Shown here piece after piece: positions 9,714 to 43,296 of a stretch of 53,037 bases of DNA (positions within the stretch are counted from its first letter, which is position 1; the number at the start of each line of letters is the position of its first letter). Origin of the DNA: a virus. The notes under the pieces are model-generated. The model was not told the DNA's origin and did no database searches. It saw only the letters and a list, made by a program, of their open reading frames with translations. Location: the UHGV virus genome UHGV-0150124; one strand, written 5' to 3'. A program made the translations under genes and the position numbers.

Positions 9714-9731
9714 TTTCTCACCTTGTCATTT

Positions 9732-9747
9732 TGTGATATGCGTCACA
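9732..9747. promoter_or_regulatory. CRP-consensus palindrome TGTGATATGCGTCACA
   Basis: Perfect TGTGA-N6-TCACA half-sites, ~62 bp upstream of a candidate promoter start. Confidence 0.4.
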
Positions 9748-9767
9748 CTAAATCACACCAAAATGGA

Positions 9768-9796
9768 TTGATCATGGTTTTTACAATATGTATATT
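9768..9796 (+). promoter_or_regulatory. Candidate sigma70 promoter for the plus-strand moron cassette
   Basis: -35 TTGATC (9768..9773), 17-bp spacer, -10 TATATT (9791..9796). Confidence 0.35.
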
Positions 9797-9824
9797 TTAC
9801 TCAAACGAAGGGGAAGTTAACAAA

Positions 9825-10031
9825 ATGGCGCGGAGGTGCGTTATGACTGAAAAGCCATGGAAGTTGACGGTATTCATGACAGACGGTAGGGAAAAGGTTA
9901 TCGCCCTGTATGACGACGAGGGGGAAGCATTGGTTGACGCGCTTTTACTTGCTGAGGATGACCGCCTTTTGGGATACCAGATCGAACCTGTCAAATATGA
10001 GGCTAACAAAAATGAAAAAATACAGTCTTGA
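9825..10031 (+). CDS. Hypothetical protein, moron cassette gene 1
   Basis: ATG at 9825 after GAAGGGGAAG; opposite strand to surrounding tail genes. Confidence 0.4.
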   Translation: MARRCVMTEKPWKLTVFMTDGREKVIALYDDEGEALVDALLLAEDDRLLGYQIEPVKYEANKNEKIQS

Positions 10032-10362
10032 TGTGTGGTTAAGTGGTAGCAAGGAGTGTTTCGGATTATTTGATAGCGAAGAAGTAGCCCTGGAAGAAGG
10101 CAGGATTCTTGAATGTAGTTTAGGCCATCCAGTGAAATATGCTGCTAATCCGGTACAGATAGTTGATGAGGTGGAAGATATGAACCCGAAAGATATTAAT
10201 GTTAACTTCAATGTTAATTTTGCAGACTCTATGGATCAGTCTTGCCCTGGTGAAATACACGCAAAAGGTTTCCCGGCTGACGATCCAGAAGCAAAACGCG
10301 AATACGAAAAAGCTGCGAAAGACTTCTGCATCGATAACCTAAGCTGTTTTAATGGCAAATAA
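10012..10362 (+). CDS. Hypothetical acidic protein, moron cassette gene 2
   Basis: 116-aa ORF, ATG at 10012. Confidence 0.4.
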   Translation: MKKYSLDVWLSGSKECFGLFDSEEVALEEGRILECSLGHPVKYAANPVQIVDEVEDMNPKDINVNFNVNFADSMDQSCPGEIHAKGFPADDPEAKREYEKAAKDFCIDNLSCFNGK

Positions 10363-10377
10363 AGAGTGAGCCAATAT

Positions 10378-10611
10378 ATGAAGATGATAGGTATTATCAA
10401 ACTCGTTGTTACATCTAACAAAAAGAAGGATTTTAATATAAAAGATAAATACCCATTATTCAAAACATCTTCTGGTACTTATTTCACTGTTGGCAACTGT
10501 TTAAACTTTGTTCCGCTGACAGTGCTTGATGTTTCTGGAGGCATGGTGAAATGGTATGGAACTGTTTACGGCGATGATTTTATGCCTGATATGCTATTTT
10601 TTGATGCGTAG
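10378..10611 (+). CDS. Hypothetical protein, moron cassette gene 3
   Basis: ATG at 10378 after AAAGAGTGAG. Confidence 0.4.
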   Translation: MKMIGIIKLVVTSNKKKDFNIKDKYPLFKTSSGTYFTVGNCLNFVPLTVLDVSGGMVKWYGTVYGDDFMPDMLFFDA

Positions 10612-10621
10612 GAGTAAAATC

Positions 10622-10870
10622 ATGGGGCGGCGCAATCACGGTGATTATGTGTACACGTTGAAACAGGCCGCCCGCCTCGTCGGTTATCATGAGCACGAAT
10701 TTATTGATTTGCTGATTGAGCGCGGGATTCTGTACCAGGTATGTTTAACGCTGTACCCGAAAGCGAAATACCTACAGGAAAAGTTATTTATCATCATGAC
10801 GGATGAAAACCAGGTAAATCATTCATTCGTCACCGATAAGGGATTGACATATTTGAAGGGAGTGTTATGA
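10622..10870 (+). CDS. Putative HTH DNA-binding protein, moron cassette gene 4
   Basis: ATG at 10622 after AGGAG; segment YTLKQAARLVGYHEHEFIDLLIERGIL looks like an excisionase/MerR-type HTH. Confidence 0.4.
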   Translation: MGRRNHGDYVYTLKQAARLVGYHEHEFIDLLIERGILYQVCLTLYPKAKYLQEKLFIIMTDENQVNHSFVTDKGLTYLKGVL

Positions 10871-10947
10871 GGTGTGTGAACATTACATTCTCGAAGTGAT
10901 TATTATTGCGGTAGCTGTAATGCTGGTATTATCACCAATATTATAAA

Positions 10948-10972
10948 CCCCGCTCCGGCGGGGTGTTTTTTT
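10948..10972 (+). terminator. Intrinsic terminator ending the plus-strand cassette
   Basis: Hairpin CCCCGC-TCCG-GCGGGG followed by TGTTTTTTTT. Confidence 0.6.
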
Positions 10973-11184
10973 TAATCGTAGGATAGAAATGCCACCTCTT
11001 TGCCATCATATGTCGTACAGCCGACATACCCATCACCCATATCATGAAGATACCAGGTCTCACCGTCATCAGCCTTTACAGTGAGATCATTAATTTCATA
11101 ATCGGCAAATAATGTAAAAGCTCCAGTGCGCTCCACTACACAAAAATAAGGCATATAACCACCTCTAATTAATAACTTGCTCAA
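10972..11184 (-). CDS. Hypothetical small protein
   Basis: 70-aa ORF between the M-like gene and the moron cassette. Confidence 0.3.
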   Translation of the reverse strand: MSKLLIRGGYMPYFCVVERTGAFTLFADYEINDLTVKADDGETWYLHDMGDGYVGCTTYDGKEVAFLSYD

Positions 11185-11518: not shown

Positions 11519-11685
11519 AAAACCCCCACAAGTTACATTTTGTATATATCTTTACGCGCTTCTACGCGAAAAATAAGATCATTGTCACAATGATTATAGC
11601 TAGTTTACAAAATGGCTTCACATAGCACGCAACAAGATGTATATAGAAAGCAAGAAGAAAGTAGTACCAACGAAGGAGGCCCAAA

Positions 11686-11841
11686 ATGAAACGCTATGTA
11701 GTAGTAATGCTAAATAACGCATTCGAACAAGTGGAAATAGCAATCGTTAAGGGTTTCGACGACGCATTCAAATACGGTCAATTCATGATGAATGCGAAAG
11801 AAGATGAATACCGGGACTTCTTCCTGAAGGCACTTAACTAA
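11686..11841 (+). CDS. Small ORF (51 aa), first gene of opposite-strand mini-cassette A
   Basis: ATG at 11686 after AAGGAGG; preceded by motif GTTTACAAAATGGCTTCA. Confidence 0.3.
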   Translation: MKRYVVVMLNNAFEQVEIAIVKGFDDAFKYGQFMMNAKEDEYRDFFLKALN

Positions 11842-11858
11842 GGATGATGGGGTGAGTT

Positions 11859-12113
11859 ATGAAACTGGTAGCGATTGACAGAAATCTGAAAGCACAGAAA
11901 AACGCACAGGACCGGATCATCAAGAAAGGTAAGGAATTACTTAAAGCCTTTCTGAGAAAAGAAGTTTACCCCAAAAAGTTACGCGACGGTTACGGATACA
12001 AAATGGATATCAATCTTGATTGGAGGCTGTTTAGCGAAGATTTGAAGGTTTGGTTAATTGTTGAGCACCATGCCTATAACAAGTTATGTGGCGTGAAAGG
12101 CACTCATAAGTGA
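11859..12113 (+). CDS. Hypothetical basic protein (84 aa), mini-cassette A
   Basis: ATG at 11859 after GGGGTGAG; followed by terminator. Confidence 0.4.
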   Translation: MKLVAIDRNLKAQKNAQDRIIKKGKELLKAFLRKEVYPKKLRDGYGYKMDINLDWRLFSEDLKVWLIVEHHAYNKLCGVKGTHK

Positions 12114-12174
12114 GTCGAGATATTCGAAAGGGGATATATCGCGCGGAATGGTCGTTTATAAATACGAAAAATAA

Positions 12175-12205
12175 CCCCGGCATTGCACCGGGGTTTAGTT
12201 TATTT
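12175..12205 (+). terminator. Intrinsic terminator after mini-cassette A
   Basis: Hairpin CCCCGG-CATTGCA-CCGGGG followed by TTTAGTTTATTT. Confidence 0.5.
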
Positions 12206-29219: not shown

Positions 29220-29320
29220 TTTTAGAATCTCCGTCTTTCAGTGGCTTATATATAACAAAACGGCACTGCCGGAACAATGCCATTTCGTAAACATTGTGAT
29301 AAAGATCACATTTTGTTCAT

Positions 29321-32320: not shown

Positions 32321-32510
32321 CCTTCACCTCGCGACGATAGATTTCTACTGGCTTAACCGGAATAGCGTTAAAATCCCCTTCATCCAGTGCGGCAATAAAC
32401 GTTAGCGCCAACCGTGCTTCAACACCGCTTAAATACTTGCACCATGCCTCACCGTTATAATCTTCAAAAAGAATAACCGCTTTTTTCATGTTTATCTCTT
32501 GTTGTTTCAT
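32310..32510 (-). CDS. Hypothetical protein
   Basis: 66-aa ORF starting at the Q stop codon. Confidence 0.4.
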   Translation of the reverse strand: MKQQEINMKKAVILFEDYNGEAWCKYLSGVEARLALTFIAALDEGDFNAIPVKPVEIYRREVKDEA

Positions 32511-33232
32511 TATTCACCCCGTGTCACTCGTTTAATTTCGTTATCAGCCCGCGCCTCTTCTTTGAACAATTCAGTAATGGCGTCTTCATAGAAAGCACGG
32601 TATTTCTTCCACCACGTTGATCGGCTTACCGGAAATACAAGCTGATTAACCGCACGCCGGACAAGATCTACAGGGAAACGCGAGTACCCGCGCCCGCCGC
32701 AATGCTGGCACGTTTTGAACACTGGCATTTCCGCTGCTTCACTGGCTGCTTTATCCGGTATCTCGCCGCGCCCTTTGCATCGTTTACAATGATTACGAAC
32801 TTTTCCATGCCCCTTGCATTTTTTGCAAAGGTGTTTTTCTCCGTAGTCGTCAAACGTAAATTTATATCCGCCGCAATCCATACAAGTTTTTTCTGTCGCG
32901 GCACTCTGGCAGTAATCCCGAAACGCGAAAACGGCAACAAGAATAATAAGATCATTGCGTTTGTCCTCGTCCAGCTCTATGACGTATTCGTAATCTTTTG
33001 CCATAGCTCTTAAACGCTCTGTAAGCAAAACTACGGCCCTGTGTTTTTCGGCTTGCGATAGTTCCATCTTTCCCAAAAAAGCGCTATAGCCAAGCTCTAC
33101 GCGCGATTGCGCCATACCCGCAGCGGTTAGCGCATCCGTCGTATTAAGAGCGTCCGGGGACGTGCCCCGGCTTTCGTCAGATAATCGCGGTGATTTAGGA
33201 AAGTGGAATTTTAGAATGGATTCTAAATTCAT
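32510..33232 (-). CDS. Q: Late-gene antiterminator Q (lambda type)
   Basis: 240 aa; N-terminus MNLESILKFHFPKSP vs lambda Q MRLESVAKFHSPKSP; Cys-rich zinc-binding segment CMDCGG...CKRCKGRGE...CQHCGGRGYSRF. Confidence 0.85.
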   Translation of the reverse strand: MNLESILKFHFPKSPRLSDESRGTSPDALNTTDALTAAGMAQSRVELGYSAFLGKMELSQAEKHRAVVLLTERLRAMAKDYEYVIELDEDKRNDLIILVAVFAFRDYCQSAATEKTCMDCGGYKFTFDDYGEKHLCKKCKGHGKVRNHCKRCKGRGEIPDKAASEAAEMPVFKTCQHCGGRGYSRFPVDLVRRAVNQLVFPVSRSTWWKKYRAFYEDAITELFKEEARADNEIKRVTRGE

Positions 33233-33414
33233 TATTTGCCCTCATAACGTGCCGCCAGCCGTTTACGATCAGAAATGGATTGCACCAGCTTTCTTTCGAA
33301 CTCTTTCAGCGCAAGTAATTCGCGCATGTGGAAAGCCTGGATTTGTCGGACCGTCTCTAAATCACGCTCGTCGCGCTGAATATCTATTTGCAGATCTTTA
33401 ACTTCGTTTTTCAT
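33232..33414 (-). CDS. Hypothetical coiled-coil protein
   Basis: 60-aa ORF between RusA and Q. Confidence 0.35.
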   Translation of the reverse strand: MKNEVKDLQIDIQRDERDLETVRQIQAFHMRELLALKEFERKLVQSISDRKRLAARYEGK

Positions 33415-33818
33415 TGCTCACCCCACATATTAGTCGCGTATTCGTCAATATCCGGTAGTAGGTCGCCGCGTTCGCGGATCTTAATAAACAAGCGTCCGCC
33501 TTTTACCTTCCGGCAGCGAACAATTTTTATTGCGTCGATTTGTCCGTCATCCTTCCAGAACTCTGCATAAGTAAGACTATCAAAAAGGCATTTGGGGATA
33601 TTATCCAGATCTCTGATCCGGTTATCCGGCGGCGCGGCGTAAATGGCAATTGCCAGTCGGCAAGGTAGGTTAATATTTAAATTTAATAGCTCGATGATGT
33701 CTCTTACTTGTTCCCTGTATTCCTTCCCCACTTTGCTGATATAGTGAAAACCGCGCGAATGTCGGTAATAGCGATTATTCGATGGCGGGTAAGGCAGGCT
33801 AAAAGAATATTCATTCAT
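33411..33818 (-). CDS. rusA: Holliday junction resolvase RusA
   Basis: 135 aa; MNEYSFSLPYPPSNNRYYRH...RDLDN...GGRLFIKI matches RusA by eye. Confidence 0.85.
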   Translation of the reverse strand: MNEYSFSLPYPPSNNRYYRHSRGFHYISKVGKEYREQVRDIIELLNLNINLPCRLAIAIYAAPPDNRIRDLDNIPKCLFDSLTYAEFWKDDGQIDAIKIVRCRKVKGGRLFIKIRERGDLLPDIDEYATNMWGEQ

Positions 33819-34420
33819 GCTGCCTTTCTCCTTAAGGCGTCCAATTTAGCCTGATAGATGTTTATTAGCTCCTTACATTCTGCGATCGTCCATTTATGCG
33901 TATCATTGTTGTTTTCCAGCGCTACCACCCTGGCGAGGCCAATTTTTCGAATCAGTGCCGGGCGATACCCTCCTATGTTCCCGTCTAATGTCTGGTTGCA
34001 GTGCCTGCATTGTTTATGGCAATTATCTTCGTTAAAGCGAAGATGTCCGGCGGCGGCTACCGTCCTGTAATGACCTGCATCCCACCCGCATTGCTCACCG
34101 TAGTAAGTCCCGCAAGATATACACGGCAAGCGCGCGTCACGTTCGCGAATATAGGCGTTAAATACATTTTGAACTTGTTTGATCCAATAACTACGCGGAT
34201 TTAACTGTTTACGCTTCCGGTTGCGTTCTTCCCTCTGGCTATCACGGCGTTTCTTCCGCTCCATAGCCTTCATAGCCTTCTCACGGTCGCGGCATAACTG
34301 GTCAAACTTCAGTTCTTCCAGACATTCATCGCTGCACCACGTTTGATTATGATATTTAGGCTCAAAAAAAACGCCGCAGCACTTGCAACGGCGTCTTATG
34401 GGTTTTTTAGGGTTTTGCAT
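33815..34420 (-). CDS. ninG: NinG (Rap)-like recombination-associated protein
   Basis: Cys clusters and SYWIKQ...AYIRERDARLPCISCG...WDAGHYRTVAAA...HKWTIAECK align with lambda NinG; track ORF extends to 34510. Confidence 0.8.
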   Translation of the reverse strand: MQNPKKPIRRRCKCCGVFFEPKYHNQTWCSDECLEELKFDQLCRDREKAMKAMERKKRRDSQREERNRKRKQLNPRSYWIKQVQNVFNAYIRERDARLPCISCGTYYGEQCGWDAGHYRTVAAAGHLRFNEDNCHKQCRHCNQTLDGNIGGYRPALIRKIGLARVVALENNNDTHKWTIAECKELINIYQAKLDALRRKAA

Positions 34421-34732
34421 AAAAACCACCCCGATTATTTTTGATTCTCTGTTTCGTTCAGCCTTTCGGCGTGTCCGGCCCTTAGCCAATGTTCTAAGCA
34501 TTCGTTGCACTCGTTACAGCCTCCTTTCTTCGTGCTGCATACATTGCACATTGCACGCATAACGCTTTCTCGTTCATAGTCGTCATGCCATTGGTAATCA
34601 TCAAAAGACATAATGCTCTCTCCTTTTCAGGTGATTTCTACGCATTTCAGCGCTGCCGGATTTTTAAAGAGCATTTTGTTTGCTTGAAGTATACAAAATG
34701 GATATGCCATAACAAGGTGAAAAGCGCCATTA

Positions 34733-34748
34733 TGTGATACGTATCACA
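34733..34748. promoter_or_regulatory. CRP-consensus palindrome TGTGATACGTATCACA
   Basis: Perfect TGTGA-N6-TCACA within a fully symmetric 14-bp palindrome, in the gap between methylase and ninG. Confidence 0.4.
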
Positions 34749-34770
34749 CAGTGACGCCATTTTGTAAACT

Positions 34771-35535
34771 TCAGTCCGGCAAAACACGGTTAAGCGTAGT
34801 CCGCGTGATGGCCCTGTCGTTAGCCAGGAATACAGCTCGTGCGAAGCCGCGCGGCGTTAGTGAGCGGATCATCTTAGTGCGCTTCGACTTTCCGCCTAAC
34901 TTCGCGTGCTGCTTACTGTCTTCCCATTCATCCGGCATTGGTACAGGCCGGAATAGCGGCTGCTTAAATCCATTACCACACCAAATACATGTTTTCTTCG
35001 TGTAGGCATCGCGGTCGGCAATGTATTCCGGGAAAGCAGGATGTTTGTCATCTTCAGGCAGGTAGCCACCGTAAACGCAAGGATTGAAGATAAAATCCGG
35101 TTTACGCCATAACGTTGACAGTGCGCCAACTGGATTTTCCACCATCCACGGCACGTTATACATATTCGCCAGTTTTTCTACAATTTTTGCGTTATACGCC
35201 GCCTTTACCTGGAAGCTAGGATCTTTTTTCCGTTTATCAGCGAACCAACGAGCGCCTGATACGGCAAGATCATCACACGGAGGAAAGCCCAAGATAATGT
35301 CAGGCTCTGGATAAACAGACAATTCAGGGGAGAACATTACCAGGAAATGGCTGTCAATCCATACGTTAACATATTCAATATTTGGATGAATTATTTTTAC
35401 CCCGTCATAATCCCCGTGATTAGCGCCGTCATAGTTGAAGCAATAGCATTTATAACCAGCTTCCGCCCAATCTTTAACGGCGTACCCGCTTCCGTCGTAC
35501 AGCGACCAGATAACCCAATTTCTAAGCCCGCTCAT
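34771..35535 (-). CDS. Putative DNA cytosine methyltransferase-like protein
   Basis: 254 aa; GFPPC (Pro-Cys) and MVENPVG (ENV-like) motifs; unusually short for a C5-MTase. Confidence 0.45.
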   Translation of the reverse strand: MSGLRNWVIWSLYDGSGYAVKDWAEAGYKCYCFNYDGANHGDYDGVKIIHPNIEYVNVWIDSHFLVMFSPELSVYPEPDIILGFPPCDDLAVSGARWFADKRKKDPSFQVKAAYNAKIVEKLANMYNVPWMVENPVGALSTLWRKPDFIFNPCVYGGYLPEDDKHPAFPEYIADRDAYTKKTCIWCGNGFKQPLFRPVPMPDEWEDSKQHAKLGGKSKRTKMIRSLTPRGFARAVFLANDRAITRTTLNRVLPD

Positions 35536-36035: not shown

Positions 36036-36354
36036 TTAGCTCTCCCTCCCGATCCGCTAATATCTGTTCGGCCTTAAGCGCGTTATAAGCAATAAGGTCT
36101 ATAAGAGTGTCGAGCGGATCAGTTCCATTAGCGAGAATAGCCCCTAAGCGCGCTTCCTTGAGGCAAATCATTAGATCCCATACATCAAGTGGGGTTAAAT
36201 TCGCATTCATCTTAGCGTTGAAAATAGCCGCTATTTTTGGCGCTGATTTTTCTTCTTTTCGATCGTATCCGTTTGTTTCCCCTCTCGCCTCAATAGTTTC
36301 AGCCGCAAGTCTTAGCAATTCAGCCGCTTTACTCATTTTCTGCACCTCTTGCAT
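36016..36354 (-). CDS. Hypothetical protein
   Basis: 112-aa ORF between the two methylase genes. Confidence 0.4.
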   Translation of the reverse strand: MQEVQKMSKAAELLRLAAETIEARGETNGYDRKEEKSAPKIAAIFNAKMNANLTPLDVWDLMICLKEARLGAILANGTDPLDTLIDLIAYNALKAEQILADREGELNEEGGN

Positions 36355-36868
36355 ATAGCTCTTTACGTGTTATCTGCGTGAAAATACATTCATGTCTGCA
36401 TCGTGGATGCCAGATCAAGAACAAGCTCCCCTTATTGTTCCCGCTTACTGGTTTCCCTGTTGCAGCATTGATAAACGCCAGCCGCCCGCCCGTGATTAAT
36501 CGGCATTCGTTTGCCGTCTCCACGCCGTTCATAAACCAGCTAACAGAAATGTCAGCGGGCAATAGCATTACACAGCCAATGTGATTTCGTTGATGTTCAA
36601 GCGCCGCCTTATCAACGAATGGCCCCGGATTAGAATATGGCGGATTCATCCAGACATACTCACCAGGCATCGCCACCGCACCCCACGGATAATGAAGCGT
36701 GTCCATTTCTTCGGTTATATATCGCGGGATTAATGCGTTTGCCTTGTTTGCCGCCACATCCGCGACGAATTCGAATTCCCGATCCATTCCTCTAAAAACT
36801 GGTTTTGGCGTTTGCCATAAGTCTTTTATTTCTTTCGGCGTATGGCTGCCGCCGTAATCATTTTTCAT
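36329..36868 (-). CDS. DNA N6-adenine methyltransferase (phage Dam-like)
   Basis: 179 aa; catalytic NPPY motif in VWMNPPYSNPGPF. Confidence 0.7.
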   Translation of the reverse strand: MKNDYGGSHTPKEIKDLWQTPKPVFRGMDREFEFVADVAANKANALIPRYITEEMDTLHYPWGAVAMPGEYVWMNPPYSNPGPFVDKAALEHQRNHIGCVMLLPADISVSWFMNGVETANECRLITGGRLAFINAATGKPVSGNNKGSLFLIWHPRCRHECIFTQITRKELYARGAENE

Positions 36869-37827: not shown

Positions 37828-38103
37828 TTAAGCCTCAATAACACCGTAATCAAACGTGCCTAAATACCGTTCGATACTTACAACCTCAATACCATCAATA
37901 CACCGTTTCCACACAGACACCTGGCTTTCATTTTCTCTGAAGTGCATATTAGAAAGCACTTCATCGGCTGGATAGTCTTTCCCGGCGACGTAGGCATCGT
38001 GACCTACGCCACCTTCTACGCAATAAAGCATCAATTCGCGTTCCATTTTTGCTTCCTCCGCACCGTAAACCTTTTGATTTCGGCTTACAAAACGGATATG
38101 CAA
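37828..38103 (-). CDS. Hypothetical protein
   Basis: 91-aa ORF. Confidence 0.4.
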   Translation of the reverse strand: MHIRFVSRNQKVYGAEEAKMERELMLYCVEGGVGHDAYVAGKDYPADEVLSNMHFRENESQVSVWKRCIDGIEVVSIERYLGTFDYGVIEA

Positions 38104-38145
38104 TCACAATACAAAATGTATATTTATGTGATCGGAATTACTCTG

Positions 38146-41938: not shown

Positions 41939-42310
41939 CTTAACATCTTTCAACTAATCCCGCAATCATCGCCGTTCCCGGCGTGACCTTGCTCACTCCA
42001 AGCAAGCTGACTCGTCGCCTTGCGTGCGGTTTCGTGGGGGATGTAACGCTTTAAACACCCCATGCGCCTTGTTATCAGTGCCGCTTTCGGTCCCCCATCG
42101 GGGAGTTACTCCACGGTTGACAAGGTGTTAAGCCTGATTTTTAAAGTGCCAGGAAGTTGCTTTTGTTACCTGCGCCCTTCCTTTGACTCGCAATATACGC
42201 CCCGTAAAACATCGAGTCAATCCATTTTGTATACTTTTTTAAAATATTTTATATGCCATTGATATTTAAATAATAAATAACGTTTTCTGTTTACGTTTTG
42301 GTGTTTTCCA

Positions 42311-42991: not shown

Positions 42992-43296
42992 GTCGCTACC
43001 CTATAACCTCAAAAAGTTTGATGCAAGTCACAAAACGTGTATTTTAAGCCTTGATCTTAAAATTCCATTTTGTAAACTTGCAGACAAGGTAAGGCCATAC
43101 TTGCAAAGACGCAAGGAAAAAGATAACGGAAGGCACAAAAAGGCACTTACCTTATGCTCTTTAAAAATCCGGTGTCGCTGCGAAGCGAAAAACAAATATC
43201 ACGCAACGGCGGGATCTGTTGAGCGGTCAGTCACTGCTATCTAATGCTAATGGGATGCCCGCCCGCGCGTTCACTCTAACCATAGGAGAAAATGCG
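42992..43296. promoter_or_regulatory. Immunity-region intergenic control region (candidate operators and rightward promoter)
   Basis: 305-bp gap with repeated CTTGCA / TGCAAG half-sites and palindrome CTTGCAAAGACGCAAG; no Cro-like ORF found. Confidence 0.4.
43153..43190 (+). promoter_or_regulatory. Candidate nutR (boxA-like TGCTCTTTAA plus boxB-like CGCU-GCGA-AGCG)
   Basis: Resembles the nutL candidate (CGCUG.GAAG core). Confidence 0.35.

Follow-up and report, generated by a model that had tools for sequence, protein, structure and literature searches.

A perfect TGTGA-N6-TCACA palindrome lies shortly upstream of a promoter-like element, here called P_nin, that precedes the antitermination site nutR2 and the genes leading to the late antiterminator Q in a mEp021-like (mEpimmI group) temperate coliphage. 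Our preferred but tentative reading, which may well be correct although we stop short of calling it probable, is that the palindrome is a class-I activator site, most likely for cAMP-CRP, serving P_nin as an unannotated internal promoter and overlapping a terminator hairpin. The window, i.e., the whole stretch of 53,037 nt that was analysed, carries the early-right operon on the minus strand, and the features discussed below are collected in Table 1.

Table 1. Features of the palindrome locus and of the related cassettes; positions are those of the window.
Feature	Position	Strand	Description
CRP-core palindrome, perfect (site 3)	34733..34748	.	TGTGATACGTATCACA
RNA hairpin, 16-bp stem/4-nt loop	34723..34758	-	GGCGUCACUGUGUGAU-ACGU-AUCACAUAAUGGCGCU, then UUUUCACCUUGUU; corresponds to predicted TERM_4 (t4) of mEp021
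P_nin, promoter-like	34688..34715	-	-35 TTGTTA (34715-34710), 16-nt spacer, -10 TATACT (34693-34688)
nutR2	34640..34673	-	boxA TGCTCTTTAAAAA (34673-34661), boxB-like GAAA-loop hairpin GCGCUGAAAUGCGU (34653-34640)
Methyltransferase-like gene	34771..35535	-	phrog_757; stop codon 22 nt upstream of the palindrome
Non-coding gap	34612-34770		159 bp, from the methyltransferase-like stop to the ninF-like start
ninF-like gene	34435..34611	-	58 aa, Cys-rich, phrog_30170
Intrinsic-terminator-like hairpin and U8	34362..34395	-	GACGCCGUUGCAAGUGCUGCGGCGU, within the 5' end (first codons) of ninG
ninG	33815..34420	-	Pfam PF05766, E = 1e-66
rusA	33411..33818	-	Pfam PF05866
Q-type late antiterminator	32510..33232	-	Pfam PF03589, phrog_127
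Site 1 cassette	9732..9796	+	TGTGATATGCGTCACA (9732-9747), 20 nt, TTGATC (9768-9773), 17 nt, TATATT (9791-9796)
Site 2 cassette	29249..29310	-	TGTGATCTTTATCACA (29310-29295), 17 nt, TTGTTC (29277-29272), 17 nt, TATATA (29254-29249)
Fourth cassette, decayed copy of the mEp021 gp25/gp26 cassette	38081..38141	-	AGTAATTCCGATCACA-17-TTGTGA-16-TAAGCC

The region is 87-95% identical to coliphages of the mEp021 group (mEpimmI) and to phage MagusPhagus, and the DNA of the mEp021 locus itself (GenBank MH706966) is 93-95% identical to that of the window. As a prophage the region was found in 35 of 5,426 complete E. coli genomes, and it also occurs in 7 phage records. Along the minus strand the locus reads palindrome/t4, P_nin, nutR2, ninF, terminator, ninG, rusA and Q, with a 60-aa ORF between rusA and Q. 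An N-like protein is encoded in the phage (phrog_271), and the N-like protein of this group, Gp17, works through three nut sites (PMC11893012). Phages of the mEpimmI group are reported to be as common in human faecal samples as lambdoid phages (PMC11893012).

The sequence-only reading had given the exact position of the palindrome correctly. It had counted this palindrome as the second perfect one; the palindrome is real, but the window holds three (at 9732, 29295 and 34733), of which that reading had named two. It had also placed the site in a 260-bp gap between the methylase-like gene and ninG. The methylase side of this description is right, but the non-coding gap measures 159 bp, and ninF and nutR2 intervene before ninG. 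The site does lie upstream of ninG-rusA-Q, the full order being ninF-ninG-rusA-orf-Q with all genes on the minus strand, a point that had been missed. Three perfect sites in the window compare with 0.04 expected from dinucleotide-preserving shuffles, none of 100 of which reached three. When one mismatch was allowed, the site at 43017 was the sole addition in the window, and in mEp021 the sites with at most one mismatch number 7, against an expectation of 1.78. All ten core positions of site 3 agree with the CRP consensus.

Of 45 homologous loci compared on the sense (minus) strand, 34 are distinct. All 45 retain the palindrome at the equivalent position, and the consensus of site 3 across these loci is YGTGAT-N4-RTCACA. 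Neither GTGA nor TCACA varies among the 34 distinct homologues; the first position is occupied by T or C, and the four bases at the centre vary freely. Read along the sense strand, a fixed TTTACAAAATGGCGTCATTG is followed by Y (T or C), a fixed GTGAT, the free centre NNNN, R (A or G) and a fixed TCACATAATGGCGCT; then come about 8 free nucleotides, a fixed TTGT, about 7 free nucleotides and a fixed ATCCATTTTGTATACTTCAA, after which boxA and boxB begin. The spacing between all of these blocks is constant in the 34 distinct homologues. Within P_nin, TTGT and ATCCATTTTGTATACT are fixed and the remaining spacer is variable. One half-site reads CGTGA in about half of the relatives, and in mEp021 itself this is the left half. 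The semi-constrained centre follows the CRP 16-mer consensus TGTGATCTAGATCACA, with TGTGATCT at sites 1 and 2 and with GATCACA, which likewise tends towards the CRP consensus, in most copies of site 3 and of the gp25 palindrome. The conserved sequence reaches past the length of a 22-bp CRP site (GGCGTCA ... TGGCGC), and this additional conservation is better explained by an RNA stem.

The Dam site GATC overlaps one half-site in most of the site-1, site-2, site-3 and gp25 palindromes of related loci (e.g., L068:17524, L070:6927, L127); in the window it is present at site 2 only. The phage has its own Dam-like methyltransferase gene (36329-36868). It is conceivable that binding is sensitive to methylation at the GATC-containing palindromes.

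P_nin was found by a consensus scan; when both strands were scored with a sigma-70 matrix, it came 24th among 105,994 positions. Its predicted start lies near 34681, and boxA of nutR2 follows 9 nt later. Between the end of the 16-mer and the -35 element there are 17 nt, and an equally good promoter 16-21 nt downstream is found for just 0.11% of window positions and for 0.4% of the AT-rich ones. Class-I CRP sites are canonically centred near -61.5 (or -71.5, -82.5, -92.5), upstream of a weak -35 element. The centre of the palindrome falls at -59.5 from the predicted P_nin start, two bases short of the canonical -61.5, and the corresponding centres of the other cassettes range from -59.5 to -63.5. 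On the plus-strand (antisense) side of the palindrome there is no good promoter. The -10 hexamer TATACT (34688-34693) is one which we take to be favoured by the stationary-phase sigma factor RpoS. The 10-mer TACAAAATGG, which is part of the conserved -10 block, is itself a repeated motif; therefore, conservation of this block need not reflect a -10 element. A role of TACAAAATGG as a -35 element with a -10 element of its own was rejected, since no consistent -10 is present at site 3.

The motif TACRAAATGG occurs in 10 copies in the window against 0.25 expected (2394, 11606, 11997, 14587, 29280, 34692, 34757, 42222, 43065 and 47331) and in 7 copies in mEp021 against 0.37 expected. In one orientation it abuts a -35 element, namely TTGACT (42222), TTGTTC (29280), TTCACA (11606) and TTCATT (14587); in the opposite orientation it makes up the spacer and -10 block CCATTTTGTAWACT. 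Two inverted copies bracket the site-3 palindrome. The motif could be an UP-like element or the binding site of a regulator.

Similar cassettes, composed of a palindrome, 17-20 nt, TTGNNN, 16-17 nt and TAWAYT, are found again at three or four further positions in these phages. Site 1 is found in about 45 phages as TGTGAT-N4-RTCACG, 19-20 nt and TTGATC-17-TATATT; its promoter ranks 4th in the window in the sigma-70 matrix scan and faces a plus-strand accessory-gene island inserted between the tail genes M and L. Site 2 heads a module of about 75 bp, in which homology between phages starts exactly at the palindrome while five different genes are found upstream. Its -10 element TATATA scores poorly (top 7.6% only). 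Site 2 was considered as a Q-dependent late promoter and rejected, the module being absent from mEp021 and the palindrome degenerate in MagusPhagus. A further paralogue, located after gp25 in mEp021 (16519), is intact and reads CGTGATTGCGATCACA-17-TTGTGA-16(..ATCCGTTTTG)-TAAACT without an extended stem; its decayed counterpart in the window has lost the left half-site (AGTAAT) and carries a -10 element altered to TAAGCC. The gp25, site-1 and site-2 cassettes are all free of terminator features. When one genome per bacterial species was scanned for the cassette, only six chance matches were obtained, in unrelated bacteria; the cassette is restricted to E. coli phages and prophages.

The one-mismatch palindrome TTTGATGCAAGTCACA at 43017 lies 18 nt upstream of TTGATC-16-TAAACT (rank 26), ahead of nutL, and this element is likely the leftward promoter; palindrome and element together occupy 43017-43078 (plus strand). 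The 43017 copy is conserved across the group. It overlaps TGCAAG/CTTGCA repeats, which may be repressor operators, and because of this overlap it carries little weight here.

Within the tail-gene cluster, and on the strand opposite to it, are the accessory-gene islands at 9714-11165 and 11519-12199 (plus strand). Each has a promoter-like element of its own, and the product of 10556-10870 has a KilAC antirepressor-type domain (PF03374, E = 6e-6). A further perfect palindrome, ATCATTGTCACAATGAT (11578-11594), is located in the gap before the accessory genes at 11686 and has TCATTGT in common with the left flank of site 3.

The position of P_nin with respect to the antitermination system adds to the argument for an internal promoter. 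The boxA of nutR2 recurs identically in nutL (43155, plus strand) and as a near copy in nutR1 (42149, minus strand), and a top-ranked promoter-like element precedes each of the three nut sites (rank 1 at nutR1, rank 24 at nutR2 and rank 26 at nutL). The location of nutR2 downstream of t4 makes most sense if transcription starts between the two. Further downstream, the hairpin inside ninG is unchanged in about 43 homologues despite variation at synonymous sites close by, and it coincides with T8 of the mEp013 record, an ARNold prediction. If this conserved element acts as a terminator, ninG-rusA-Q would depend on antitermination. The palindrome itself was rejected as boxB of nutR2, for which a conserved, purine-rich loop beside boxA would be expected, as its loop is hypervariable and the actual boxA and boxB lie 60-108 nt downstream (34673-34640).

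The best sigma-70 match of the window is TTGACT-17-TATATT (42192-42220, minus strand), which follows closely on the CI-like repressor gene and its terminator, with boxA of nutR1 43 nt further downstream. The inverted repeat TTGACTCG...CGAGTCAA flanks this match, which probably represents the main early rightward promoter together with its operator.

In the proposed mechanism a dimeric activator, most likely host cAMP-CRP, would bind the palindrome upstream of P_nin, and transcripts starting about 9 nt before the nutR2 boxA would run into ninF. Without the N-like antiterminator these transcripts should stop at the ninG-internal hairpin with its U8, while with the antiterminator loaded at nutR2 they would continue through ninG and rusA to Q. 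In this way cAMP-CRP would make the supply of Q responsive to nutrition as well. RNA polymerase that comes from upstream would transcribe the same bases into the apex of the 16-bp hairpin followed by UUUU (predicted t4), so that terminator and activator site would overlap. The sequence-only reading had already suggested that CRP could tie Q to the catabolite state of the host. The exact core, the conserved half-sites, the recurrence of the cassette and the class-I distance to a promoter-like element leading through nutR2 to Q lend this idea partial support. What that reading had missed is that the palindrome is also the apex of an RNA hairpin, predicted as TERM_4/t4 in mEp021, and that the conserved terminator-like element inside ninG would still leave Q dependent on the N-like antiterminator.

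In the sense strand the palindrome forms the top of a 16-bp stem, the base of which is GC-rich and followed by UUUU, and the hairpin begins 13 nt past the stop codon of the methyltransferase-like gene. The free energy is -19.1 kcal/mol in the window and ranges from -19 to -28 kcal/mol in 33 of the 34 homologues. Pairs were counted on 28 distinct sequences: 96% of the stem cells are paired, three one-sided changes retain pairing, and the three invariant non-Watson-Crick positions of the stem are G.U, which pair only in the sense transcript. Compensatory (double) changes in the stem were absent from the 28 sequences, and covariation is uninformative; an uncompensated mid-stem C.A mismatch at one pair was present in 14 of the 28. 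In intrinsic terminators the stem is followed at once by a U-rich tract of about 7-9 nt. The tail UUUUCACCUUGUU consists of four U followed by mixed bases, and its columns are among the least conserved (UAUU, UUUA and CAUU variants). The long stem extension is specific to site 3; at the other palindromes both it and a U-tract are missing. The direct repeats AATGGCG on either side of the palindrome were rejected as a separate motif, being not enriched (19 copies against 11.9 expected); they form the base of the hairpin stem. A search of Rfam 15 gave no match above the gathering score, the closest being a chance-level ssnA hit elsewhere in ninF (15.7 bits against a threshold of 37.3). Overall, a terminator role of the site-3 hairpin is plausible.

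For mEp021 the same locus has been described with nutR2 downstream of the C-methyltransferase gene and with the hairpin annotated as a terminator (Negrete-Mendez et al., 2025; PMC11893012). In its record TERM_4 (TransTermHP score 79) is annotated precisely on the homologous palindrome, in the gap that separates the C-methyltransferase gene from ninF. Among the terminators of this phage, t1, t2 and t5 were demonstrated experimentally, and t3 and t4 are predicted only (PMC11893012). The article neither annotates nor discusses a promoter or a CRP site for this locus, the term CRP occurring zero times, and its supplements contain no nut, promoter or terminator data (PMC11893012).

It is therefore worth asking whether the palindrome might be nothing but the upper stem of t4, stopping unmodified RNA polymerase after the methyltransferase gene in the manner of the lambda nin-region terminators ahead of Q, with an incidental likeness to a CRP site. 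We regard this as rather unlikely, although it deserves serious consideration. It accounts well for the TERM_4 and t4 predictions, for the strength of the hairpin with its GC-rich base and UUUU so close to the stop codon, and for the pairing pattern, including the G.U pairs that work in the sense strand alone; more distant relatives also have a hairpin right after the methyltransferase gene. However, it leaves unexplained why the stem contains an exact CRP core and why three or four further gaps contain the same palindrome with neither U-tract nor extended stem, and it leaves nutR2 downstream without a purpose-built promoter. The hairpin itself also speaks against it: compensatory changes are absent, half of the distinct sequences have a C.A mismatch left uncompensated, and the U-tract is short and among the least conserved columns. 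In the published description t4 is marked as predicted only.

In the loci L043-L050, the methyltransferases of which are 58-61% identical, unrelated GC-rich hairpins without the palindrome are found directly after the same gene, between TTGTTAAAA and CATAATG. Their arms differ by compensatory changes (GCCGGAT/ATCCGGC, GCCAGGT/ACCTGGC, CCCGC/GCGGG). A structured element at the position after the methyltransferase gene seems to be conserved over a wider phage diversity. Since these hairpins are unrelated and do not contain the palindrome, the loci are uninformative on the CRP question.

A second alternative accepts a dimeric regulator at the palindrome, but one other than CRP, either a phage helix-turn-helix protein (e.g., a MarR-like gp14 homologue) or another host factor, which would coordinate P_nin with the accessory promoters. 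Such a protein would fit the finding of several cassettes within one phage group, the common CGTGA...TCACA asymmetry, which has the same genomic orientation at three mEp021 loci, and the conserved flanks TCATTG / TAATGG, which are not CRP-like. The second motif TACRAAATGG, with 10 copies against 0.25 expected, accompanies these promoters as well. Nevertheless, all ten core positions and the semi-constrained centre (TGTGATCT, GATCACA) match the CRP consensus, no Crp/Fnr-family protein is annotated in mEp021, and such a palindrome is missing from the strongest early promoter (42220), the place at which one would look for a phage switch protein. We therefore consider a regulator other than CRP improbable.

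Still less probable, and in our view very much so, is a repressor-type operator, in which the palindrome would fill the spacer of a minus-strand element GCGTCA-17-CATAAT preceded by TACAAAATGG, and binding would shut this promoter off. GGCGTCA and CATAAT do belong to invariant blocks at fixed spacing, TACAAAATGG stands directly before the -35 element at the rank-1 promoter and at two accessory promoters, and cAMP-CRP is known to repress promoters of phage T1 (PMC6737242). Against this, the -35 element matches only 3 of 6 bases, the whole element falls outside the top 45 promoter scores, and the paralogous cassettes have no equivalent -10 at that position. Finally, an operator of the immunity repressor was rejected, because the rank-1 early promoter (42220) has no such palindrome, 43017 carries just a one-mismatch copy, and the perfect copies lie 8-33 kb from the repressor gene.

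The preferred reading, a class-I site for P_nin, finds its closest parallel in lac P1, where a TGTGA-N6-TCACA-type site is likewise separated by exactly 17 nt from a weak -35 element, with an A/T-rich stretch in between for the alpha C-terminal domain; the lac P1 sequence was confirmed at 100% identity in E. coli genomes. In contrast to site 3, lac P1 has a spacer of 18 nt instead of the 16 nt of P_nin and a half-site TCACT instead of the perfect core. With regard to the order of elements, the pL-nutL-N-tL1 and pR-cro-nutR-tR1 units of lambda resemble this locus in their succession of promoter, boxA/boxB nut site, short gene, intrinsic terminator and genes leading to Q. The early promoters of lambda are under the control of CI and Cro, not of an upstream CRP-type site, and to our knowledge lambda has neither a third nut site nor a known internal promoter ahead of the nin genes. 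The late promoters of P2, P4 and 186 have a TGT-N12-ACA dyad near -55 that is bound by Ogr, Delta or B for upstream activation of weak promoters; site 3 differs in having TGT-N10-ACA with full CRP pentamers, and no Ogr-like activator was identified. Sites 1 and 2 are reminiscent of lambdoid morons, i.e., short accessory-gene units between conserved genes, and the promoter module of site 2 moves between contexts. We know of no description of morons with a common upstream activator site.

A link between CRP and phage development has a precedent in phage T1, in which the pir, dam and recE promoters are under the control of cAMP-CRP, so that host nutrition influences a decision in phage development (Laganenka et al., 2019; PMC6737242). 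In T1, however, CRP acts as a repressor and does so without an antitermination cascade, and the phage is not related to the one studied here. In a 2022 review the repression of T1 pir is the sole CRP-controlled phage decision listed. A class-I CRP promoter and a nin-region terminator are both ordinary mechanisms, and it is their place here that would be new.

It is tempting to extend the proposal to the whole group. A set of weak mEpimmI promoters, one leftward before nutL, one internal before nutR2 and Q and several for accessory genes, might be wired to host cAMP-CRP through class-I sites, so that the catabolite state would gate both the N and the Q arm and site 3 would be a CRP site in DNA and t4 in RNA. 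This extended proposal goes well beyond a single site and, judged as a whole, it is more doubtful than likely. If such a set of promoters does exist, it would offer a reason why mEpimmI phages need a third nut site, which would serve the third promoter.

The promoters of mEpimmI phages are essentially unmapped, although the group is reported to be common in human faecal samples (PMC11893012). If t4 acts as a terminator and nothing else, the feature would be an ordinary nin-region terminator. If the palindrome is indeed a class-I activator site for P_nin, an internal promoter directly before nutR2 would give a concrete and testable reason for the unusual third nut site, and the element annotated as a terminator in mEp021 may double as a protein-binding site. 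The supply of Q and several accessory genes would then be linked to the cAMP level of the host.
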